Shown piece by piece: positions 51,182 to 62,904 of a stretch of 64,000 bases of DNA. The notes beneath the pieces were generated by a model that had not been told where the DNA came from, did no database searches, and saw nothing but the letters and a program-made list of their open reading frames with translations. Made by a program: the position numbers and the translations under genes. Origin of the DNA: Negativicutes bacterium (GTDB taxonomy: Bacteria > Bacillota > Negativicutes > UBA1444); contig CAXXIN010000007.1 of NCBI GenBank assembly GCA_963665275.2, positions 192,001 to 256,000 of the forward strand, in the 5' to 3' direction. Each line of letters opens with the position of its first letter. Within the stretch, counting starts at the first letter, position 1.

Positions 51182-52192
51182 TTATTTGTCGGGCGTTATC
51201 GAGCCATGCGGCACCGCCAGGAAAATCAACGAACAATTGGCATAATCGCCGGATTGCAGCAGCGCAACCAAATCGTAGGCGACTCCTTGTACCACGCCAA
51301 CGCCGGATACGCTGGAAAAATTCGGGTACATCAAGGCTGCAGTATTCAGATAGGCCGGAGTCGCAGTTGAACCTGCCGTAATCGAAGTCGGCGCCCAGGC
51401 GGTTTGCGCACCGGCTGCCTGAATTGTGAGAAACTGCGTCACGTTTAATGTGCTGGTATACGGCGGTTTGCCATCAATTGCCCCAATAGCGGTATTGGTT
51501 GTGCTCCAGCCGTAATTATTGGTTCCATCGCCGAAACTGAGTGCTGCGGCCGGCGAGAAAGACCACTTGAACCCAGAACTATAGGCGGGCGTAGCAAATC
51601 CTTCTGATCCGGTCACCATGAAATTCAGGTCAGCTGTTTTGGAATTCAGTTGGCCATTTGTACTGTTGATGACTATCGGCACTGAAAAATATGCCGTATG
51701 AGCGGCATACGATTGATATGGGGTTTGAGTGCTATTGTTGGCTTTATTAGTCAAGTCAATACTGTTGGGATTGTAATTCTTATTGTTCTTGTCACTGGAT
51801 TGAACCCAGGAGTTGTTCGGGTTGTTCAAGCCGATTTGCACGGAATGAAAAGCAAAGCCGCTGCTGCCGGTCGCTTTCCCTCCGCCACCGCTGCTGTCAT
51901 TAGAACCAGTGATCCCCTTCAGCCAAAACGATTCGACGGCAGTGGGCGTGTTAGGAATTTGCGACCCGGAAAAGCCTTTCATGATGTCGTTCTTTTTTGC
52001 GGGATCGCCGATATAAATCTCCCATGGGGTCATGTTGATAATATTTAGCACATTCAGCATATTCATCGTCGGTTTATTATACTGTACCTGGGTATAAGCC
52101 ATGATGCTGGCGTAGGGAGCATTGGCCGAGACCAGGCTGCTAAAAGCAAACACAAATGCCATCAGGCAATAGGCCACCGTTCTTTTAAGCAT
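51182..52192 (-). CDS. Secreted hypothetical protein (336 aa, S/T/N/G-rich)
   Basis: Signal peptide (MLKRTVAYCLM...VSA), GAGGAG RBS; no recognisable family. Confidence 0.75.
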   Translation of the reverse strand: MLKRTVAYCLMAFVFAFSSLVSANAPYASIMAYTQVQYNKPTMNMLNVLNIINMTPWEIYIGDPAKKNDIMKGFSGSQIPNTPTAVESFWLKGITGSNDSSGGGGKATGSSGFAFHSVQIGLNNPNNSWVQSSDKNNKNYNPNSIDLTNKANNSTQTPYQSYAAHTAYFSVPIVINSTNGQLNSKTADLNFMVTGSEGFATPAYSSGFKWSFSPAAALSFGDGTNNYGWSTTNTAIGAIDGKPPYTSTLNVTQFLTIQAAGAQTAWAPTSITAGSTATPAYLNTAALMYPNFSSVSGVGVVQGVAYDLVALLQSGDYANCSLIFLAVPHGSITPDK

Positions 52193-52226
52193 TGCAAACT
52201 CCTCGCTTTATCGCTTATTTCCGCTA

Positions 52227-53672
52227 TCAGTGCGCCAGTTTCGCCAGATAGGAATGAATCGCTGGAATCTCCGCCTTGTGTTTTTCGAAGATCTCTTTCG
52301 CTTTCATCCTTATGCTCGCCACGCCATTGGGGTCGTGTTTTGCCTTGCCATATTGACCATTCATCCCGAATAAATCAAGCATCTTTTGTGCATCTTGCGG
52401 GTTTTTCTTGGAGATAGTCGTAATAATTTCCAATAATTTGAACGTATCTTGCGACTCCTCACGGCGCGGCTTGTATTGACGCTTCGCCGTGGAAACCATT
52501 GCATTGGACGGACTGTTCAGGCATGTCTGCATTTGCGCAGCGGCATAAACGCCATTGTTGACCAAAATAACAACCAGCGTGTCGGCTGCGTTTCGTTCAG
52601 GGCTCGAGGTATTTAGCGGACTGGTTCGCCAGGTATATACAATCAGCGAATTTTGTTGTTCCAACGGCAGCGTTGTCGTTGAATTCGCCGCAGTCGTATT
52701 ATATACGAGGTAGCTGCTGTTGCCGCTTTGCATCGGCAAGGCAAGTCCCGTGCTACCATTTGCCGGCAATGCTGCCGTAACATTGATTCCCTTGTAGGTT
52801 GCCGGATAGGGTGCGTTGGTATATACCTCCGACCCCGAATCAAGCATTTCCTTAACCGATGTATATATGCCGTAAACCATATCGGCCACGGTCAGCGGAT
52901 TCGGCTCCAGGATCGTGTCGATATCGATCAGCAGCGTAAGTATATCCTCCACCCAATCTTGTTTAGGTGGAAAAGTGCTTTGCCCAGATTGATAGGCACT
53001 CGTGGCGCCACCCAGGCTGTTGATATTGATGGCATAGCCCGGCAGCGTCGCTCCGGTGCTGGAAACCAGTTTCAGATTGATCGAGCTTATCGACGGATTG
53101 GCCATACTTTGCCCAAACGCCTGTTGTTGCGGCGTAACCGAGTGATATGTATTGGCTGGTCCGGGTGTTGCCCCCATGCTGGCGCCGCCCGGAGACTGAT
53201 AGGTTGTATATGAAGTATTGGGAAAACTAACCGTGCCGCTCCAAGACGGAAACAAAGCAAACGCATTGACAAAGCCGAAGTTCGTGTTGGCGGCGGCGCC
53301 GGAAGATAAAACCACCGGCTGCAAGGAGGCATTCGTTGCGCCACTTGGTGTAATGGCGGGCGTAGTCGGATTGCTGAAAAACGGAGTTGTTCCCCCTTGC
53401 GCATAAGCTACCCCAGACAACCCCATGGCGATGGGGGTGTTCGCTTTTGCATATGCCGAGGCCTGGTTGGTGGAAACGTTCATATTGATCGCCGACTGGG
53501 TCAGGTTCATCAGCATTACAGGTAAAACACCATAGGTCTGAATCTGAACCGCCGTTCCTGCTGGCGGCGGCGATACCGGCGCGTCTGCCTGCACGACATT
53601 GTTGGACATGACTACAAAAACAAAAAACAAGGGCAAGGCCAATTTACGAAAGCCACATTTAGCACCACACAT
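52227..53672 (-). CDS. Secreted hypothetical protein (481 aa)
   Basis: Signal peptide ending VQA, GGAGG RBS; no recognisable family. Confidence 0.75.
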   Translation of the reverse strand: MCGAKCGFRKLALPLFFVFVVMSNNVVQADAPVSPPPAGTAVQIQTYGVLPVMLMNLTQSAINMNVSTNQASAYAKANTPIAMGLSGVAYAQGGTTPFFSNPTTPAITPSGATNASLQPVVLSSGAAANTNFGFVNAFALFPSWSGTVSFPNTSYTTYQSPGGASMGATPGPANTYHSVTPQQQAFGQSMANPSISSINLKLVSSTGATLPGYAININSLGGATSAYQSGQSTFPPKQDWVEDILTLLIDIDTILEPNPLTVADMVYGIYTSVKEMLDSGSEVYTNAPYPATYKGINVTAALPANGSTGLALPMQSGNSSYLVYNTTAANSTTTLPLEQQNSLIVYTWRTSPLNTSSPERNAADTLVVILVNNGVYAAAQMQTCLNSPSNAMVSTAKRQYKPRREESQDTFKLLEIITTISKKNPQDAQKMLDLFGMNGQYGKAKHDPNGVASIRMKAKEIFEKHKAEIPAIHSYLAKLAH

Positions 53673-55571: not shown

Positions 55572-55712
55572 GGAGTCACCTCGATTATTTCTCATACTGT
55601 ATTTTATACTACTATTATCGTATTATGATCATTACTTCTGAACGCGACCTGTCGCAACTAAACCGATGCCATCCAGTAAAACCTTTGAAGCGCAAACGCG
55701 TAACAGCATAGA

Positions 55713-55748
55713 AAAATGACCTACCGCATTTATTATAGTAGGTCATTT
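55713..55748. terminator. Terminator at the end of the phage-like leftward operon
   Basis: AAATGACCTAC...GTAGGTCATTT inverted repeat with T run on the minus strand. Confidence 0.7.
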
Positions 55749-55772
55749 CCCTTTTGCAAATTATATTCTTTT

Positions 55773-56129
55773 TTATACCTCTTCGTCTTCCTTCAGCTCG
55801 ATGGTCTCGCCCTCGAGCGTCCCGTCCCACGTCACCTCAGACAGCGGCTCGTCGTCGCCCCCTCCGGCGCCGGTTCCTCCCTCATCCTCCATCGCCAATA
55901 TCGCCGCCACCCGGTGGATGATGTCATGCGCCTCCTCAACGCGCCTCCTGGCCATTGTCTCGCCCTCGTCCGCCGCTTCCTCGTCCTCAGTCACATCATC
56001 CACCGCGCCGATCACTTCGCCGATCTGGCCGATCCGGCGCTGGGTAAGATCATCGCGGGAGGCGACCGCCCCTAATGCTCCGAGCAATACTTTCAATATC
56101 CTCGTTACCTCTGTCAACAACATCGTCAA
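55773..56129 (-). CDS. Acidic hypothetical protein with N-terminal amphipathic/hydrophobic helix
   Basis: 118 aa ORF, purine-rich RBS, followed by terminator. Confidence 0.7.
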   Translation of the reverse strand: MTMLLTEVTRILKVLLGALGAVASRDDLTQRRIGQIGEVIGAVDDVTEDEEAADEGETMARRRVEEAHDIIHRVAAILAMEDEGGTGAGGGDDEPLSEVTWDGTLEGETIELKEDEEV

Positions 56130-56246
56130 AACCCCTTTCCTTATCTATTTTTAACGGGTTAATGCAAAATCGCGGGACCGTCGCCTTTCCTTCGGCAGCG
56201 TGTCCCGCGTTTTGTTTGCTTTCTTGCCCGGATGGCCGGTCAGCGT

Positions 56247-58822
56247 TTATGCCTTCATTTTTTCATTTCGCGCTCGCCACTCCCGGCATTCGTTGCAACG
56301 GTTCATCTGGTCTTCCATCCGCTGGGCGATCGCCACGGCCGTCTTTTCAAACGCCCCCAGCCGATCGTGTTACCCTAAGCCAGCAAGTCGCCCTACTGAC
56401 TCGGCTTCAAAACCGGACTTGACAGTTTCCCGTCATCCGGCTCCTCAACTTTCCATACTTTCTGAAGAGCGGCTCCTATTTCGACAATGCTCATGTGCCA
56501 GTTGACTGATCTCCCGTTGTCTACCATTCTTACTTTTGCCGATTCGCTCCATGACGGCTACCGGTTCCGACATCCGGGTAAAGTACAAACCACATATCGC
56601 GCAGCATCCCTTTTGTTTCTTGAGAAGCCTTGCGACGTAATTGTCCAGTTCCGGATGCCGCCCCATCCGAGTGGCCCAGTACAACCAGTCCCCATCATAA
56701 GGACTGCGTTTTCTGTCCACTTTGATGTGACGACGAATCGGTGTTTCACCGTGCAGGTACAGGGTCGCCCCCTCCGAAGAACGGAATTGCCATCGCTTGC
56801 CGTTATGATGCCAATACTTTCGGTAGATCCATTGCTTCGCTTTGTTTGGGTGTCTGCGTTTCATCCAGGCCCACAGCTTTTCCCACAGAACGTGCTGCAA
56901 TTTGCTGAACATTCTAGATGAAGCCTGGGTGGAATAGTAGCGACACCAGCCCCGAATAATCGGGTTGAGTATGCGAATCAGTTTCTCCTGTGTACCGGCT
57001 TGGAGGCTGTCGATGACTTCTCCCATTCTATCTTGGTGGCGAAGGACACCATCCTTGCTGGGACGAATCAGTGGGAGAAACGTTAATCGCTCCTCACTGT
57101 TCGTATACCGTCGGGTATGGGTTTGCCCCGCTGGTACCTGTTGTATATGGAAGCCGAGGAAATCAAATCCCGGCGGCTGCCCGTTGATCGCTTCCAAGGT
57201 ATGGACGATGCGGGTTTTGGTCGGACTTAATTCCAGACCCATCGTTGCCAGCCATTTCTCCGTAACTTTGCGGAGATTATGGATGACTTCCAAGTCGCGA
57301 TGCATGATCACAAAGTCGTCCGCGTACCGGATGACCCGAGGCCACCACGTCACGTCTTCTCCTGCAATCATACGGCGATAAGGGATTTGACGCTTGATCT
57401 CCTCTTCCAACCCATGCAGCGCGATGTTTGCCAAGAGCGGAGAAATCACCCCTCCTTGCGGCGTCCCTCGCTCTGCCCGCTGGAAGACGTCTCCTTCCAT
57501 TACTCCAGCTTTTAACCACCTTCGCACGATGCGACGCACCCGTGGGGCTGCGTCCATCTTATTGAGTAGCGCGCGGTGGTCGATGCGGTCGAAACATTTT
57601 GCAATGTCCGCATCCAGTACATATTTCGGTTGATGAGCAATTTGTCCGAATATGTATTGAATCGCATCATGGCAGCCCCTGCCGGGACGGAAGCCGTAGC
57701 TGTTTGGTTCAAACCGGGCTTCCCATTCCGGCTCCAGAGCCTGCTTGACCATCGCCTGTGCCGCCCGGTCTTGAAGGACCGGGATTCCCAGCGCTCGTCG
57801 CTCCGTTTTCCCCGGTTTGGGGATGTATATACGGCGCACGGCCTGTGGCACAGGAATCTGCTTGAGCTGTTTGGCCAACTGGATTTTGTCTTCCTGGCTG
57901 ATGGAGGCTATCTTATCCACGCCGGGCGTTTTCTTCCCGGCGTTGTCTTGAGCCACGCGCCGCACGGCGAGTAACCGGGCGGGCCACGAGGCGATAAGCA
58001 GCCGCTGCAGCCGTTGAACATTTCGCTTGTCGCCCTTTAGAGTCGCTTGGTAGATTCGTTTTTGAAGCTTGAAAACCGCCCGCTCGACTTGCGGCCAGCA
58101 AATGGTCTTCCATTCATCCATCGGCAGTTGTGCCGTGTCCATGACATATCCACTCCTACTATCGAAATACCATTTGGAAAACCGGGGCCACGTCTGCTTA
58201 TCCGTCGGCTTTCCCGACGGCATTTGCTTCTTGGCCCATCCTGCCCTCCGTTGGCATACGGTTGACTGCCTGCTCCGAAAAGAATCCGGAGAGCCAGCGG
58301 AGAGTTACCCCGTTCCTGAATATCGTTTTGCGTAAAGGGTAGAACCGCACTATCCACCGGGTTTCTGTGAGTGTGGAACCGGTCGCAACTCGAGACGCCG
58401 GCCTCGTATCCTTGTCCGTTTTGGACCAAGCCCTTCGGTCCGCGTTGGGGGCTTGTTCTGGTTGACGGTGGTTCACGCATGCGTTCGCTTTCGCTGTTCT
58501 TGCTTTACCTGCTTGCGGGAGTTCCCGAGTCGGACTCCGGGTTACCCGCGTTTCGCCCATGCTGGCACCGTTCGGTTTGTCACTTCCGCACAGTGTGGGC
58601 GATGATGTTCCCTGTCCACCACAGGGGCTGGGAATTGAGTTTCCTCGCGCCCAGCTTCGATATTCAAGTTGTCGCTGAAGGCCTTCTGACCTTCACTGCC
58701 TCCCATCCCTTCAAACCCATGGCTTGAATTTCAGGAGAACGGGTCGCACCAAGTTTGATCAAGAGCCAAGCGGCCACTGCAATCGGGAATCCCACCTGGG
58801 ATATGAGCTGCGCCCAGTCCAT
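56247..58822 (-). CDS. yvrJ: YvrJ family protein, split by group II intron (exon 1 58750-58822, exon 2 56247-56368; 64 aa spliced)
   Basis: Spliced: MDWAQLISQVGFPIAVAAWLLIKL-DDRLGAFEKTAVAIAQRMEDQMNRCNECREWRARNEKMKA; VGFPI motif; follows DUF2922. Confidence 0.85.
56369..58749 (-). mobile_element. Group II intron (IIB, chloroplast-like class), 2381 nt
   Basis: 5' GTGCG at 58749; domain V GAGCCGGATGACGGGAAACTGTCAAGTCCGGTTT; domain VI ending GGGTAAC at 56369; EBS1 CGAGTT pairs with IBS1 AACTTG. Confidence 0.93.
56445..58142 (-). CDS. ltrA: Group II intron reverse transcriptase/maturase
   Basis: RVT_N (VFKLQKRIY), NAGKKTPGVD, SYGFRPGR, GTPQGGVISPLLANI, RYADD, maturase LNPIIRGWCRYY; start ATG 58142 with AGGAG RBS. 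Confidence 0.95.
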   Translation of the reverse strand: MDTAQLPMDEWKTICWPQVERAVFKLQKRIYQATLKGDKRNVQRLQRLLIASWPARLLAVRRVAQDNAGKKTPGVDKIASISQEDKIQLAKQLKQIPVPQAVRRIYIPKPGKTERRALGIPVLQDRAAQAMVKQALEPEWEARFEPNSYGFRPGRGCHDAIQYIFGQIAHQPKYVLDADIAKCFDRIDHRALLNKMDAAPRVRRIVRRWLKAGVMEGDVFQRAERGTPQGGVISPLLANIALHGLEEEIKRQIPYRRMIAGEDVTWWPRVIRYADDFVIMHRDLEVIHNLRKVTEKWLATMGLELSPTKTRIVHTLEAINGQPPGFDFLGFHIQQVPAGQTHTRRYTNSEERLTFLPLIRPSKDGVLRHQDRMGEVIDSLQAGTQEKLIRILNPIIRGWCRYYSTQASSRMFSKLQHVLWEKLWAWMKRRHPNKAKQWIYRKYWHHNGKRWQFRSSEGATLYLHGETPIRRHIKVDRKRSPYDGDWLYWATRMGRHPELDNYVARLLKKQKGCCAICGLYFTRMSEPVAVMERIGKSKNGRQREISQLAHEHCRNRSRSSESMES

Positions 58823-58826
58823 CGGA

Positions 58827-59039
58827 CTACGCCAGCACCGTGGTATCCTGAGTCAGGATGATCGGATCGACTGCCGAGACGAGATCTCCGCCGCTCGATG
58901 CGAACAGGTTCCGGGCGATGATCATGGTTTGTGTGGCAACGGCTTCCGCTTTGGTGAGGTTTTCTTTTGGATTGGCGATGAGGATGTTCACATCCTTGCC
59001 TGCCGCGTTCTTGAAGCCGAGTTTGGCTGTTCTAGTCAT
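58827..59039 (-). CDS. DUF2922 family protein
   Basis: LGFKNAAGK..I.I.NPKENLT...MII.RNLF...GGDL; AGGAGG RBS. Confidence 0.82.
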   Translation of the reverse strand: MTRTAKLGFKNAAGKDVNILIANPKENLTKAEAVATQTMIIARNLFASSGGDLVSAVDPIILTQDTTVLA

Positions 59040-59075
59040 CGGTTGCTCCTCCTTTCGCCAGATTTTTTACCGGCG

Positions 59076-59300
59076 TTACTCGCCGATCAGGTTGGCGCTG
59101 TCGGTGCGAACGATCGCAACGAGCGATTTCGCCTGCAGTCCCGCGAGACTGGCGCCGACATCATAGATGTCCTGGTCGGTGGCGGTCGGTTTCACGTTGG
59201 AAAAGCTCAGCGTCTTGAAGACGTTGGCCCCGGTGGCGCTGACGCCATTCACGACTTTGATGCCGATCCGGGATTCCTGGGGTGCTTTCGTAACAGCCAT
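59076..59300 (-). CDS. DUF1659 family protein
   Basis: GV...G..VFKTLSFSNVKPTATDQDIYDVG.SLAGLQ; AGGAGG RBS. Confidence 0.82.
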   Translation of the reverse strand: MAVTKAPQESRIGIKVVNGVSATGANVFKTLSFSNVKPTATDQDIYDVGASLAGLQAKSLVAIVRTDSANLIGE

Positions 59301-59713
59301 GAGGATCCCTCCTTCCTGGGTAACGCGGATTTCGCGCTCCCAAACATTCTATGAAAAACGGGACTCAGTGCCCCGATTTTCCGGTTGTGCCCACATCCCG
59401 CCTTTTTTTGCCGCCCGACGGTTCAGCAAGGTTCAGCTACAAGGCACGGCGAGGCTTGTACTGCGCCGCGTACAAATCGTACGCAAGCAGGACAAACACA
59501 GTCGTAACGCCGTAGATGGGCCTTGCTGGGCCGCCGGACATGAGAAAAGGACACGCCATGGCTGACGTGTCCCAAAAACGGGGATGGAGGTACTATATGG
59601 CAGCCGCAAGGTAATTAGTCCTGCGGGTGAGCCCGGTATCGTGCGCCCCATCCCCATAGAGCCTATGTAGTTTTCAAGGTTTGTTTTTGTCTACAGTCTT
59701 ATTATACGTCGGT

Positions 59714-60286
59714 TTATTCGTCCGTGAACGCCTCCGGCGGAAATCTTTTCAGTTCTTTTTCATAGTCATCCACTCCTACCGCGATGGCGGCTCCCATCCG
59801 CCATTGCTCCAGCGAATCGGTGAGCATTTCTCGATCCACCACATTGGAGATAAAGCCTCCTTCGACGAGCACCGCCGGACAGTCCGTCTCCCGCAGCACC
59901 TGGAAGCTCGCTTCCTTGACGCCCCGGTCGTCGGTGAGCATGGCATCGGTCATGCAGAACTGGATGCAGCGGGCCAGCTGACGCCCTTTGATACTACCGG
60001 GATAGTAGTACGTTTCTGTTCCGTCGGCATCGAGGTTCTCCGAGCTGTTGCAGTGAATACTGATGAACAGGTCGGCTCCCCACTGGTTGGCCCGTTCCGC
60101 CCGAAAAGCCAGTCCATCGCTTTCGATGTGCTTGGGTCGGGTCAGGATCACTGCGTGTCCGCGCAGCTTGAGCTCTGCTCTGGCAAAGCGGGCGATGTAC
60201 CAGTTGATATCGGCTTCATTGCAACCGCCGGCGCACGCCCCCGGCTCCACGGGGCCGCTATGCCCCGGATCAAGTACGATTTTCAT
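59714..60286 (-). CDS. N-acetylmuramoyl-L-alanine amidase (Amidase_3, catalytic domain only)
   Basis: LDPGH, E, SIHCN, GTETYY, VLVEGGFISN; no signal peptide or cell-wall-binding domain. Confidence 0.92.
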   Translation of the reverse strand: MKIVLDPGHSGPVEPGACAGGCNEADINWYIARFARAELKLRGHAVILTRPKHIESDGLAFRAERANQWGADLFISIHCNSSENLDADGTETYYYPGSIKGRQLARCIQFCMTDAMLTDDRGVKEASFQVLRETDCPAVLVEGGFISNVVDREMLTDSLEQWRMGAAIAVGVDDYEKELKRFPPEAFTDE

Positions 60287-60374
60287 AACACAACCTCCCT
60301 CGAATTATTTTATCGTCACTCGGCTCATCTTCACCAAAATAAGGTGCCATGAAGTCGGGATTATTTGCATCGTG

Positions 60375-60674
60375 TCAGCCATTTTTGAATGGCGCGATCT
60401 CGTCCGCTCGGACGAACCTGTGTTTCCCCGGCACTTCCGGGTCCGTTCCCTCACATGTATGGATCGCCCCATATACCATCACCTGCTGGCCGCGAACTGC
60501 GGCTTTTTTCAACACCTTCAAACATTCGTTAACGCCAACGACTTCCATGATCTCCGGCTTACCGCCCTTGCTGTCGTTGACTCTCAGGGAAAACCAGTAA
60601 CGAAATCTTCCAGACTTTGTCTTTACCTGTTGAGGTTCTCCGGTCAGCGTTCCCGTGATCATTACATGATTCAT
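60375..60674 (-). CDS. Single-stranded DNA-binding protein-like (OB fold, no acidic tail)
   Basis: MNHVMITGTLTGEP...FSLRVN...RGQQVMVYGAI...VRADEI. Confidence 0.68.
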   Translation of the reverse strand: MNHVMITGTLTGEPQQVKTKSGRFRYWFSLRVNDSKGGKPEIMEVVGVNECLKVLKKAAVRGQQVMVYGAIHTCEGTDPEVPGKHRFVRADEIAPFKNG

Positions 60675-60828
60675 CGTTATCATCCTCTCTTCTTTTTTTG
60701 ATTCTGATTTTCAACTTAGGTTATGCACATTTCCACCCCCTTTATTACTACGACGTTCTTAAATAGTTTATGTCTGGTTTGGTATAGGATCCGCACCAGA
60801 CCTGTATTTACGCGCTTCGCGGCTTGCG

Positions 60829-60888
60829 CTTGAACACATTCTTGAACACAACCTTAGACACATTCTTGAACACAATCGTGAACCTCAT
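60829..60888. repeat. Five 12-bp tandem iteron-like repeats
   Basis: CTTGAACACATT CTTGAACACAAC CTTAGACACATT CTTGAACACAAT CGTGAACCTCAT. Confidence 0.85.
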
Positions 60889-60903
60889 GGGTTCAAGCAG
60901 CTT

Positions 60904-60935
60904 TTATGCACAAACTTATCCACAGGTTATCCACA
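60904..60935 (+). promoter_or_regulatory. Three tandem DnaA boxes
   Basis: TTATGCACA (60904), TTATCCACA (60916), TTATCCACA (60927). Confidence 0.75.
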
Positions 60936-60948
60936 GATTTTGAGCTAA

Positions 60949-61356
60949 CTAGCGCACGATATGCAGATTGAGCCGATTCAGGCGATGCGGACTGTTGGCA
61001 GGCAACCGTTTTCGCTTCGGCGGCTTCTCCTCTTGCTGTGCGCCATAATTTCCAGCATCATTAGTGACTTTTGCTTCTTCAAATCCCAAGAGACAATATA
61101 TCGCCGGGCGTCCGCCTTTTTGCTGAAAGTGCAGAATCCGCCCTGCTTCGACCAATTCTTTGCGGCATCGGGTTAGCTGAGTCCGGCTTACACGCAGCAA
61201 CGAAGCTAGCGAGACCGTAGGCACGGCGAACTCTTCCGGCCACCCTGCTTTGTTATCTATCGACATCAACAGGTTCCAGAGCGCCTGAGCGTGCGGCGAT
61301 AGCGGATGTGTTGCCAGCCAGCTGTAAAAATGATTGATTTCAAACAGGTAGTTCAT
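60949..61356 (-). CDS. Phage replication initiator-like winged-helix protein (N-terminal domain only)
   Basis: MNY..EIN.FY.WL...LS..AQALW..LM.I.NKAGW.EEF.V resembles the N-terminus of Firmicute phage DnaD-domain initiators. Confidence 0.7.
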   Translation of the reverse strand: MNYLFEINHFYSWLATHPLSPHAQALWNLLMSIDNKAGWPEEFAVPTVSLASLLRVSRTQLTRCRKELVEAGRILHFQQKGGRPAIYCLLGFEEAKVTNDAGNYGAQQEEKPPKRKRLPANSPHRLNRLNLHIVR

Positions 61357-61540
61357 GACAAACGGACGCGCACGCCGCGCTGAAATTCAGAGATGCCCCG
61401 ATAGACATAGATAAGGCGGGTCTTTCACCCGCCTTCAATTTTCGTGGATCACACATAATATTCACAGGTTTCTCCGCCTTTGCGTCCGGTATATCGGGCG
61501 GCAGCTCTCCCTGTCGCATGATTGAATAGAGTTTTTTCAT
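61340..61540 (-). CDS. Small hypothetical protein in the Cro-like position
   Basis: RBS AAAGGGG before ATG 61540; overlaps the initiator start; no HTH recognisable. Confidence 0.5.
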   Translation of the reverse strand: MKKLYSIMRQGELPPDIPDAKAEKPVNIMCDPRKLKAGERPALSMSIGASLNFSAACASVCHELPV

Positions 61541-61569
61541 TACACGCATCCCCTTTCTTTTTTGTGCCA

Positions 61570-61689
61570 AATAATCACATGATTGTAATAATCACAAAAT
61601 TGATTATATTCCTGCTCACTCAGAATTGCAATAGCTTACGATTGCGTCATTTTTTGCACCTTGTTAAATCGTTATCGTATCGCTAAAAT
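61570..61689. promoter_or_regulatory. Back-to-back promoters with operator-like repeats
   Basis: Leftward TTGCAA-17-TATAAT (61631-61603); rightward TTGTTA-17-TAAAAT (61661-61689); AATAATCACA at 61570 and 61587. Confidence 0.62.
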
Positions 61690-61708
61690 AGAATTTGAGG
61701 TGATAACG

Positions 61709-62047
61709 TTGCTGGCAAGAAATATTCAGACCGCTCGAAAAAAATTAGGCCTAACCCAGGAGGAACTGGCCGATCAAATCGGCGTCAAGCGAGCCGCTCT
61801 CGCCTCTTGGGAAACGCGCCGCTCCAAACCGGACATCGACGACTTCATGAAATTGTGTAATACGCTGAAAATAAGGCCAGAAGATCTATCCGGTTTTTCG
61901 TTCGCGGGCGAACTTTCCAATTTCCAGCAGCCAGTGATCGATTTGGCAATCATTTTGGCCACTCTTCCTCCCTCTGTGTTTCCAATGGTCAGGAAAATGA
62001 TCCTGTCGCTATCGGATGAAGTCAACGGCGACAAGCCCGAGGAATAG
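61709..62047 (+). CDS. XRE family transcriptional repressor
   Basis: ARKKLGLTQEELADQIGVKRAALASWETRRSKP; TTG start at 61709 after GAGGTG. Confidence 0.9.
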   Translation: MLARNIQTARKKLGLTQEELADQIGVKRAALASWETRRSKPDIDDFMKLCNTLKIRPEDLSGFSFAGELSNFQQPVIDLAIILATLPPSVFPMVRKMILSLSDEVNGDKPEE

Positions 62048-62099
62048 CTAGGACTGGTATTAAAATACTGGCCGGATGCGGCAGAGGTGGGTATTAAGC

Positions 62100-62675
62100 A
62101 TGTACACCTGCGAAAAATGTGGCGAAAACTATCGTGGAAATTTCGGCAAATGCGCCAATTGTGGTGGAGAAATTGTCATTGCCCCGCCACGCCCGACGTG
62201 GAAACAGAGGTTCGCTGCTAAATCCATTCAAGCAAAAACCACTCCCAAAAAAACCACGCAGAAAATTCGACGAAGAAAAAAAGACTTTATCATTTTTTTT
62301 ATTGTCGCAGGAATAATCGCATTAGTATTTTTCACAACTAAAAGCACTCCGTCTACATCGGCTTTACCCGGTCCAACGAATAATGTCGTTGCCAATGAAG
62401 CCACTTCCGCCAAACGCCCAGGCGACATTACCGTCCTGAAGCATAATGCGCTCATCGCGGTTAATGACGACGCCTATGCCGCCTTCGGCAAGTTTTCATC
62501 TGCAAACAACAAAGACGAAATAGCCCGCATGATAACCAGCGGTCGCTTAGTTCTCGTTGGCATCGGCGCAAAAATCACGATTACCAAAGTTAACGGTGAC
62601 ATTTCTTTTGTTGAGGTAACAGACGGACCAACTACCGGGACAAAAGGCTGGCTATTAAATTCTTTGATGCGATAA
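62100..62675 (+). CDS. Zinc-ribbon, single-TM protein with exported C-terminal domain
   Basis: CEKC...CANC, basic linker, TM FIIFFIVAGIIALVFF, SH3-like ending GTKGWL. Confidence 0.7.
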   Translation: MYTCEKCGENYRGNFGKCANCGGEIVIAPPRPTWKQRFAAKSIQAKTTPKKTTQKIRRRKKDFIIFFIVAGIIALVFFTTKSTPSTSALPGPTNNVVANEATSAKRPGDITVLKHNALIAVNDDAYAAFGKFSSANNKDEIARMITSGRLVLVGIGAKITITKVNGDISFVEVTDGPTTGTKGWLLNSLMR

Positions 62676-62904
62676 TCGTCTGCAATTTACCAAAAACCAC
62701 TTTTATGACAAATACAGGTTCTACTACAGAAAGGATCTTTGAAACGAAAACCCTGATGATTATACTGATCATTGCGCTGCCGGCGCTCGTTGCCGGAGGG
62801 ATACTGGCTGACCTGATGGTTTGGCTTTTGTATTCCTGCTATTAAAAGCCTGGCTGGAATCGGCAGGGGTGATTGGCGAGAAACTTGAGGAAACGGGAGA
62901 AAAA

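Follow-up and report, generated by a model that had tools for sequence, protein, structure and literature searches.

The locus described here raises the question whether a compact, phage-like gene cluster without a recognisable integrase or capsid gene represents the debris of a prophage, a minimal virus, a cellular module within phage-like surroundings, or an element that is maintained in its own right. The cluster occupies positions 55,773 to 62,675 of a 64,000-nt stretch of a Negativicutes genome (assembly GCA_963665275.2, contig CAXXIN010000007.1, positions 192,001 to 256,000 of the forward strand), which as a whole is called the window below. It consists of a rightward part, i.e. a repressor gene followed by a gene for a membrane protein, and a leftward part, in which replication-like genes are followed by genes for an N-acetylmuramoyl-L-alanine amidase, for two small proteins of the families DUF1659 and DUF2922, for the membrane protein YvrJ (these last three are referred to as the trio), and for an acidic helical protein (ACID). 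An earlier note on this stretch had described the arrangement as a minimal phage-like replicon and lysis module, in which the DUF1659 and DUF2922 proteins could be structural subunits and the amidase plus YvrJ the exit module; every part it listed, the gene order and the intron in yvrJ were recovered. We find that the locus is no debris: it is a genuine element that is under selection. With moderate confidence we take it to be an integrase-less member of a group of small integrative islands in Sporomusaceae-type Negativicutes that derive from phages, lack virion genes and carry as payload a gated cassette of the holin-endolysin type.

The genes of the window, to which all coordinates given without a contig or locus refer, were scanned against Pfam, PHROGs and NCBIfam and its RNA was compared with Rfam. 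In addition, 34 loci were fetched which together with the window make up a survey of 35 loci, in which the genes were called, clustered and annotated. The conserved payload consists of the amidase gene, a constitutive-looking promoter with a leader and two terminators, and the genes for DUF1659, DUF2922, YvrJ and the acidic protein. The same core is present at three places in the genome of the window and its order recurs across the loci of the genus: it is either constant or takes the cyclically permuted form trio, acidic protein, amidase, where the small acidic gene overlaps the start of the amidase gene. All five core genes are under purifying selection, with a median dN/dS (the ratio of nonsynonymous to synonymous substitution rates, over 10-11 copies) of 0.26 for the amidase, 0.20 for DUF1659, 0.24 for DUF2922, 0.08 for YvrJ and 0.13 for ACID. 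Recurrence, conserved order and purifying selection bear out the suspicion, already voiced in the earlier note, that the cluster is not random prophage debris.

DUF1659 was found in 29 of 41 related genomes, mostly as a single copy in other families, and with one to five copies in 7 of the 11 relatives within the genus. Amidase_3 shares a locus with the trio in 19 of the 35 loci, and the 14 amidase-bearing loci of the window's genus all lie in phage-type contexts, that is, among genes for an XRE or LexA-like S24 repressor, HTH_17/excisionase-like proteins, an SbcC-like ATPase, DnaD/Lin1244 initiators, a G39P loader, IstB or Bro-N/ANT. As regards the two further copies in the genome of the window (G000), the one on contig C13 (G000:C13:227003-230946, locus L067) shares 98.5% identity with that of the window over the intron and onwards to the end of the amidase; precisely at the intron's 3' end the similarity breaks off, and exon 2 of yvrJ and the ACID gene are missing there, which suggests an intron-associated rearrangement that removed both. 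Downstream of this break a Bro-N fragment and a UPF0047 gene were observed. The copy on contig C14 is intronless and 81-84% identical to that of the window. The contigs of three sequencing runs break at the repeated core, and one run of raw reads placed 0 reads.

The amidase and YvrJ carry the link to lysis. The Amidase_3 domain spans residues 3-173 of the 190 residues of the protein, with no N-terminal extension and no wall-binding domain, and because it begins at residue 3 the enzyme is predicted to lack a signal peptide. It matches the endolysin family phrog_435 (1e-48); identity with the spore cortex amidase CwlD was rejected (105.7 bits against a cut-off of 221.55). The gene is located about 900 nt upstream of yvrJ, which places a small transmembrane protein with a charged tail beside a muralytic enzyme. 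In the case of YvrJ, a scan of IMG/VR with an alignment of the family yielded 10 viral loci. All six YvrJ-like viral open reading frames (ORFs) that were tested match phrog_4898, annotated as holin, and on two phi29-like viral contigs the YvrJ-like ORFs directly adjoin endolysins and the packaging ATPase. Moreover, the profile of the island YvrJ proteins and that of the viral, phrog_4898-type proteins align with an hhalign probability of 98.8% (E 7.6e-17).

The genomic neighbours of YvrJ in other lineages point in the same direction. A genome scan and Pfam showed that the trio, or YvrJ alone, adjoins Peptidase_M15_4 in Bacillus massilionigeriensis, Amidase_3 in Cytobacillus, Amidase_2 in a Caldisericota metagenome-assembled genome, and Amidase_5/SH3_5 in Anaerococcus degeneri. 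YvrJ is present in 127 of the 301 genomes of an even sample of the phylum, mostly as a single copy with housekeeping neighbours. Among the 30 best-scoring YvrJ loci of that sample, which are not a random draw, the full trio is found in 25, and a peptidoglycan hydrolase recognised by Pfam is directly adjacent in 11 (Amidase_2 in six, Peptidase_M15_3 in three, Amidase_3 and Glucosaminidase in one each). Such a swap of the neighbouring hydrolase for non-homologous families would correspond to the classical signature of a holin-endolysin pair. The homology to a phage holin family and the occurrence of five hydrolase families beside YvrJ in other lineages thus support the notion of amidase plus YvrJ as an exit module.

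Separately, we observed that a conserved family of proteins of about 200 aa accompanies the trio in 12 of these 30 loci (L168-L170, L175, L177, L178, L180, L182, L183 and L187-L189). The same family is found in two Bacillaceae loci (L141:8773-9294 and L143:5413-5928), the members of which match ComK (PF06338) weakly (4.1e-5 and 8.3e-3), and some 5 kb from the trio in two Negativicutes loci (L040:2766-3323 and L042:2496-3077). No member of this family was found in the genome of the window.

In the window, yvrJ is divided into two exons by a group II intron, which shows the features of its class: an ORF for a reverse transcriptase (RT)/maturase with the Pfam domains RVT_N, RVT_1 (6.9e-41) and GIIM, the Rfam matches Intron_gpII and D5 (domains V/VI) at 56369-56446, a 5' GUGCG, and a precisely interrupted host gene. 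Because the intronless C14 copy aligns across the intron junction, and since the spliced reading is colinear with intronless homologs, yvrJ is interrupted precisely and in frame. A yvrJ copy of the relative G010 (L052/L144, contig C51) is split at the same position by an insertion of about 2.4 kb with a homologous RT ORF, and a further RT ORF lies directly after the leader terminator in a third island (L050, G010:C9). Group II introns seem to home repeatedly into this cassette.

The gating of the cassette is suggested by the 413-nt spacer between the amidase and DUF1659 genes, which as a whole folds with z = -4.94 and which has the parts of an attenuation leader: the ORFs are preceded by a promoter, a conserved structure and an intrinsic terminator. 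About 110 nt of the leader are conserved, comprising a 9-bp closing helix and an inner hairpin. RNAalifold predicts 29 pairs on 11 aligned copies, and 98.7% of the pair cells are standard. A covariance model of the leader gave 21 strong matches (78-145 bits) among the 41 genomes, all of them within the window's family-level group; every one coincides with or adjoins a DUF1659 copy or lies at the end of a contig. Four further matches are weak, and one of these is a 31-nt contig-end fragment. Rfam holds no credible match to the leader, either at the gathering threshold or at E <= 1 (best 23.9 bits against a 60-bit cut-off), and the RNA is a candidate new cis-regulatory element.

Three smaller points concern this spacer. 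A weak match to the leader model at G000:C8:39272-39380 (minus strand, 31.8 bits, E 4.9e-6) is located between two unannotated ORFs, with no trio near, and may represent the terminator part only. An ORF for a hydrophobic protein of 40 aa (59437-59559, minus strand) begins within the loop of the first terminator; it is found only in the long versions of the leader (window, C13, C14 and partly L048), is missing from the short versions, and may be a gene or no more than RNA structure; it was not counted as a gene. Finally, the idea that the spacer is a decayed sigma factor gene was rejected, because the genome has no good sigma match and the promoter and leader explain the spacer.

Taken together with the head of the leftward unit, where the XRE repressor and divergent promoter-like sites form a lambdoid-type switch in front of mosaic early genes, these parts lead us to propose the following course of events. 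Relief of repression would allow transcription of the early unit, upon which the amidase would build up harmlessly in the cytoplasm. The strong promoter after the amidase gene would yield mainly a short leader RNA that ends at the terminators. Production of the trio and the acidic protein would begin once some factor permits readthrough; an antiterminator from a helper phage, a small molecule and the DUF1659/DUF2922 pair are the candidates. YvrJ, as a single-pass holin homolog, would then open the membrane and give the amidase access to the wall, with lysis or a local opening of the wall as the outcome. The role of DUF1659 and DUF2922 could be to control timing or feedback as a pair within the cytoplasm, perhaps by way of RNA, by analogy with what is reported for SroA/SroB of Staphylococcus aureus (see below). 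At the level of the element, the purpose might be exit together with a helper phage, abortive infection (which would be consistent with the defence cargo described below), or the release of DNA or vesicles.

Table 1. Features of the locus, by position in the 64,000-nt window (aa, amino acids; HMM, hidden Markov model)
Feature	Position	Strand	Basis or remark
Intrinsic terminator closing the leftward unit	55705..55752	-	13-bp stem and U-run; fold z = -4.55
Acidic helical protein (ACID), 118 aa	55773..56129	-	last gene of the conserved core
Strong hairpin and U-run, attenuator-like, separating yvrJ and ACID	56165..56214	-	fold z = -4.30
yvrJ exon 2, coiled-coil tail with CxxC motif and stop codon	56247..56368	-	local YvrJ HMM match 56259-56366
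Group II intron, ~2.4 kb	56369..58749	-	RT/maturase ORF 56445-58223; 5' GTGCG at 58749
yvrJ exon 1, single transmembrane helix, holin-like	58750..58822	-	PF12841 8.1e-7, profile positions 1-19 only
DUF2922 protein (SroB-type), 70 aa	58827..59039	-	PF11148 3.2e-16
DUF1659 protein (SroA-type), 74 aa	59076..59300	-	PF07872 1.2e-23
Second intrinsic terminator	59359..59375	-	just upstream of the DUF1659 ribosome-binding site; T-run conserved in the alignment
Structured leader RNA: P1 (GGGGAUGG/CCAUCCCC), P2, P3 hairpin, first terminator	59540..59671	-	11-copy alignment
First intrinsic terminator of the leader	59548..59573	-	followed by a long hairpin
Sigma70-type promoter TTCACG-16-TATAAT	59701..59728	-	directly after the amidase stop; conserved in 11 copies
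Amidase_3 N-acetylmuramoyl-L-alanine amidase, 190 aa, catalytic domain only, endolysin type	59714..60286	-	PF01520 3.1e-43
OB-fold SSB-like protein, 102 aa	60375..60683	-	PF00436 9.6e-10
Origin-like region	60829..60935	.	pattern; four 12-bp-spaced repeats 60829-60887
Winged-helix protein, 135 aa, DnaD-type/phage replication-initiator N-terminal domain	60949..61356	-	PHROG match
76-aa ORF, first of the leftward unit	61340..61570	-	gene status uncertain; coding score 4.3 (weak)
Switch region	61570..61660	.	divergent promoter-like sites; two 16-nt direct repeats at 61570-61602 as candidate operators
XRE/Cro-CI-type repressor, 128 aa	61661..62047	+	HTH_3 9e-15; PHROG transcriptional repressor/regulator families
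Zinc-ribbon membrane protein, 199 aa	62076..62675	+	co-transcribed with the XRE repressor

The remaining parts of the locus (Table 1) vary more. Within the switch region a leftward promoter-like sequence (TTGCAA-17-TATAAT) is found at 61631-61603, and rightward candidates are present as well. The 76-aa ORF has no match in Pfam, PHROG or NCBIfam. The 135-aa winged-helix protein matches phrog_19658 (2.9e-7) over profile positions 1-71 of 283 only, phrog_186 at 1.7e-4, and nothing in Pfam; since the initiator consists of the N-terminal domain only, it is doubtful whether the element could replicate autonomously. At 60916-60935 there are two TGTGGATAA DnaA-box motifs in tandem, and together with the repeats they uphold, as a pattern, the origin that had been proposed previously. 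The early genes differ between the copies of the island (SbcC-like ATPase, DnaD, G39P loader, IstB, Bro/ANT), and none of the other loci fetched contains a homolog of the window's genes for the SSB (single-stranded DNA-binding protein), the initiator, the 76-aa ORF and the zinc-ribbon protein.

None of 200 shuffled versions of the terminator at the end of the leftward unit folds as well as the native sequence. ACID matches no family in Pfam, PHROG or NCBIfam, and a search of the ESM Atlas gave no usable match; the protein was found in nine loci of the genus, and its homologs form 1020 unnamed clusters, nearly all from metagenome contigs. The N-terminus of the zinc-ribbon protein has a weak TcaA-like match (2.3e-4, NCBIfam) and none in Pfam. 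The island is flanked by a GGDEF/dCache gene and an EamA transporter gene (Pfam). Two ORFs of 336 and 481 aa at 51182-53672 (minus strand), between the EamA and GGDEF genes, have no Pfam or PHROG match. Some 130 nt before and into the start of EamA (62710-62847) recur with about 80% identity at G000:C7:257824-257962 and G000:C10:38842-38968, and may represent a leader common to these sites or else the 5' ends of paralogous genes.

Three loci from another genus (L059, L060 and L064, of genomes G017 and G038) show additional genes at the amidase, namely an ORF of 100-125 aa with a signal peptide and a coiled coil that follows it in all three, and, in two of the three, also an ORF of 78 aa that contains two hydrophobic segments. 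Both are without family matches in Pfam and PHROG. They could be spanin-like and second holin-like genes, respectively.

The virion-less nature of the islands follows from a series of negative searches. No ORF of the window island has a family match to a terminase, portal, capsid or integrase in Pfam or PHROGs. The scans of the neighbours, which covered ORFs of at least 75 aa or a single representative of each cluster, revealed no terminase, portal, capsid or tail protein among the cluster representatives, among 99 further neighbours and, with PHROGs, among 50 neighbours without Pfam match; no virion gene is located within 8 kb on either side of 14 genus loci; and the genome, which is 92.6% complete, has no match to PF05065, PF03354, PF04860 or PF03237. 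The claim that terminase, portal and capsid are missing thus extends, within these scans, from the window island to the vicinity of every copy. The companion claim, i.e. that there is no integrase, holds for the window copy and fails for the family. On C14, a tyrosine integrase of 470 aa (phrog_1, 6e-72) adjoins an S24 repressor and a tRNA-Lys gene, the 3' part of which is repeated directly over 38 nt at a distance of 31.8 kb, where ARAGORN finds no tRNA; these attachment (att) repeats are located at C14:51577 and C14:83342. In two other genomes the repressor end likewise bears an integrase, which is broken in G032 and intact in G017, where AbiE and Fic adjoin it.

The island on C14 (G000:C14:51537-83379; loci L156, L068 and L159) combines a phage-like front end (integrase, S24 repressor, Bro/ANT) with the amidase-trio core. 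Its cargo includes a type I restriction system with FRG and Fic, SMODS with an S_4TM effector (CBASS-like), a Schlafen/AlbA ATPase, AAA_23/AAA_21 genes and two ankyrin-repeat proteins, and defence-type genes flank many of the copies in the genus. A gene with a Tad2-like (anti-Thoeris) domain upstream of the islands of two relatives (L049:4935-5219 and L056; cluster c58) is a hint that counter-defence genes of phage origin form part of the cargo. No direct repeats were found to flank the window island, and no empty site could be defined for it: the EamA flank is found in eight genus relatives and the upstream synteny is not conserved. Judging from its sequence, the window copy looks grounded, because it has neither an integrase nor an att repeat, its initiator is truncated, and its yvrJ needs splicing of the intron.

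Several observations weigh against the reading of the locus as an integrative island with a gated holin-endolysin-type cassette. The window copy, as noted, has no integrase and retains only the N-terminal domain of the initiator. YvrJ is a putative holin, as the PHROG label is an annotation, and when two cellular YvrJ proteins were compared with PHROGs directly, neither reached phrog_4898 at E <= 1e-3. Scans of IMG/VR with DUF1659, both as a single protein and as an alignment of the genus, found no relatives, and none turned up among the INPHARED phages. The amidase gene precedes the leader and is not co-gated with YvrJ, and although the host has a diderm envelope, no spanin was recognised in the window by the Pfam and PHROG scans. 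The leader shows weak covariation: because there are only 3 compensatory pairs, a count that is reached in 34 of 500 shuffles, the structure rests on conservation more than on covariation. Finally, 19 of the 30 phylum loci have no recognisable hydrolase, and in 8 of the 35 loci of the survey the trio lies, without a nearby amidase, directly behind a gene of about 190 aa for a sigma-70/extracytoplasmic function (ECF) sigma factor (TIGR02937), in a conserved neighbourhood of housekeeping character (ABC-F, RecD2, ComF-like, FlgM). Given these two sets of loci, the trio can work without a hydrolase.

The last observations are also the starting point of the alternative that survives best, namely that the trio, with or without hydrolase, is a chromosomal module for stress response or wall remodelling under control of a sigma or ComK-like factor, and that it merely ended up in phage debris, so that the island has no life cycle of its own. 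The wide, mostly single-copy distribution of YvrJ in the phylum sample among housekeeping neighbours, the association with the ECF sigma gene and the absence of an integrase and att repeat from the window copy would all fit, as would the published regulons in which SigS drives sroAB (preprint 10.1101/2022.10.19.512975) and SigO-RsoA drives yvrJ (PMC8103513), as far as the available parts of these sources go. We nevertheless consider it unlikely, given that all genus copies with flanking sequence (contig-end fragments apart) lie in a phage-type context of repressor, replication or antirepressor genes, that genomes hold one to five copies at differing sites, that the C14 copy is part of an att-bounded island with integrase, that the window's genome lacks the sigma factor found elsewhere, and that defence genes flank many copies.

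It is less likely still, and in our view improbable, that the locus is the decaying remnant of a tailed prophage that lost its structural block, whereby an early region became fused to a lysis cassette without any coordinated function. The layout does equal the map of a siphophage minus the structural genes, the C13 copy is truncated at the 3' end of the intron and has lost exon 2 and ACID, the initiator of the window is truncated, and the integrase is absent from the window and broken in G032. Against these stand the purifying selection on all five core genes and the fact that the same virion-less architecture, with different early modules, is found in at least 14 loci of the genus. Moreover, no intact relative with virion genes was found in the 41 genomes, nor any relative of DUF1659 in IMG/VR or INPHARED; the diversity of the 1020 ACID homolog clusters in metagenomes argues in the same direction.

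The last alternative concerns the two small soluble proteins. DUF1659 is followed by DUF2922 at 36 nt, which is the arrangement that characterises the pair family. AlphaFold2 models DUF1659 as beta-beta-alpha-beta (pLDDT 86) and DUF2922 as beta-beta-alpha-beta-beta (pLDDT 78); despite these similar layouts, homology between the two could not be shown (hhalign probability 0.7%). A Foldseek comparison of both models with the PDB and BFVD gave nothing at E <= 1e-3, and the best VIA Z values (4.9 and 5.3) are to unrelated small alpha/beta proteins; a null result of this kind shows neither a new fold nor a difference from known folds. A tblastn search of the INPHARED phages with DUF1659 and DUF2922 gave no match. 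According to the available part of a preprint on S. aureus (10.1101/2022.10.19.512975), SigS induces sroA (DUF1659) and sroB (DUF2922) about 1000-fold, SroA stabilises the sigS mRNA, and SroA and SroB interact in a two-hybrid assay in which neither interacts with itself. A minimal virus or satellite with the two proteins as coat or filament subunits and amidase plus YvrJ as its exit is therefore very improbable, even though two abundant-looking proteins of about 70 aa with good ribosome-binding sites lie beside the exit module, PHROG families exist for both and the replicon-like region has iterons, since no coat or filament fold likeness was detected, their S. aureus homologs are a reported regulatory pair, and in most lineages, including most Negativicutes, they are encoded by single-copy chromosomal genes behind a sigma factor gene, so that this part of the earlier proposal is not supported.

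The preferred reading, i.e. an island with a gated holin-endolysin-type payload, can be taken a step further, be it tentatively. It is possible that the trio plus a hydrolase constitutes a widespread and hitherto unrecognised device of the Firmicutes for regulated lysis or holin-dependent release, which is gated by an ECF sigma factor, a ComK-like factor or a leader RNA depending on the lineage, and which in the Sporomusaceae has become the payload of new virion-less, integrase-mobilised, satellite-like and defence-carrying islands that use it for helper-coupled exit or abortive infection. In any case, three common Pfam families of unknown function, whose genes unusual sigma factors control in S. 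aureus and B. subtilis, gain a concrete hypothesis that is linked to holins and hydrolases. The island family in turn is a candidate for a new phage satellite or vehicle of defence islands in diderm Firmicutes, a group for which none of the papers listed by our literature search described a satellite.

How the element relates to known systems is seen most directly in the comparison with the cassettes of the lambda S/R type and those of phi29-like phages. It shares with these a small single-pass membrane protein beside a muralytic enzyme without signal, and the viral phrog_4898 homologs flank endolysins as well; the replacement of the partner hydrolase by non-homologous families across lineages is likewise a trait of holin-endolysin cassettes. 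The late promoter of lambda makes a short terminated transcript ahead of the lysis genes, and the design of the island recalls this. In contrast to such cassettes, the holin-like gene is invariably preceded by those for two additional small soluble proteins, the gene of the amidase is located upstream of the unit of promoter, leader and terminators instead of downstream of the holin gene, and neither a spanin nor virion genes were recognised.

The phage-inducible chromosomal islands (PICIs), as described in the accessible part of PMC10085698, resemble the element in their small size, their divergent repressor and early genes and their replication module, and, in the case of some island members, in the presence of an integrase with att sites and of defence cargo. 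The differences are that PICIs have a Pri-Rep primase, whereas the replication genes of the window island comprise a DnaD-type N-terminal domain, an SSB-like protein and iterons only, that Pfam and PHROGs revealed no terS, cpm, ppi, capsid-size or packaging gene in the window island or the loci of the genus, in which small ORFs of unknown function remain, and that the window copy has no integrase. In addition, PICIs are stated in that source to be typically without lysis genes, with holins found consistently in phages only, whereas the island carries a lysis-type cassette. The element consequently falls outside the PICIs with respect to the integrase (in the window copy), Pri-Rep and the packaging genes.

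With the SigS-SroA/SroB system of S. aureus the element has in common the two Pfam families, which are arranged in identical order, separated by a short gap and each provided with its own Shine-Dalgarno sequence; that circuit responds to DNA damage and the pair is proposed to act on RNA, going by the available part of the preprint (10.1101/2022.10.19.512975). In the island a sigma70-type promoter with a leader RNA takes the place of the ECF sigma factor, and YvrJ, the acidic protein and the amidase are attached. No ortholog of the trio-adjacent sigma factor was found in the island or in the genome (best match 35.9 bits). By its domain content the element is a member of the DUF1659/DUF2922 pair family, be it without the sigma-factor control of that family. 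The yvrJ gene of B. subtilis, which is driven by SigO-RsoA according to the part of PMC8103513 available, belongs to the same family (PF12841), and the trio of other Negativicutes also lies behind a small sigma gene; the island YvrJ differs by a longer C-terminus with a CxxC motif, and a control search found no DUF1659 in B. subtilis.

Finally, the type 10 secretion system of Yersinia (PMC10847048) and the TcdR-TcdE-TcdL system of Clostridioides difficile (PMC12485765) are, as far as the accessible parts of the two papers show, likewise cases in which a phage-derived holin and a muralytic enzyme have been kept without a virion, there controlled by a regulator of their own and employed to bring about release or lysis in a regulated manner. 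They differ from the island in that the latter has no large cargo gene beside the cassette, involves other families and is known from sequence. Viewed against these systems, the element combines traits of known kinds, namely those of a satellite-like island and those of a lysis cassette.

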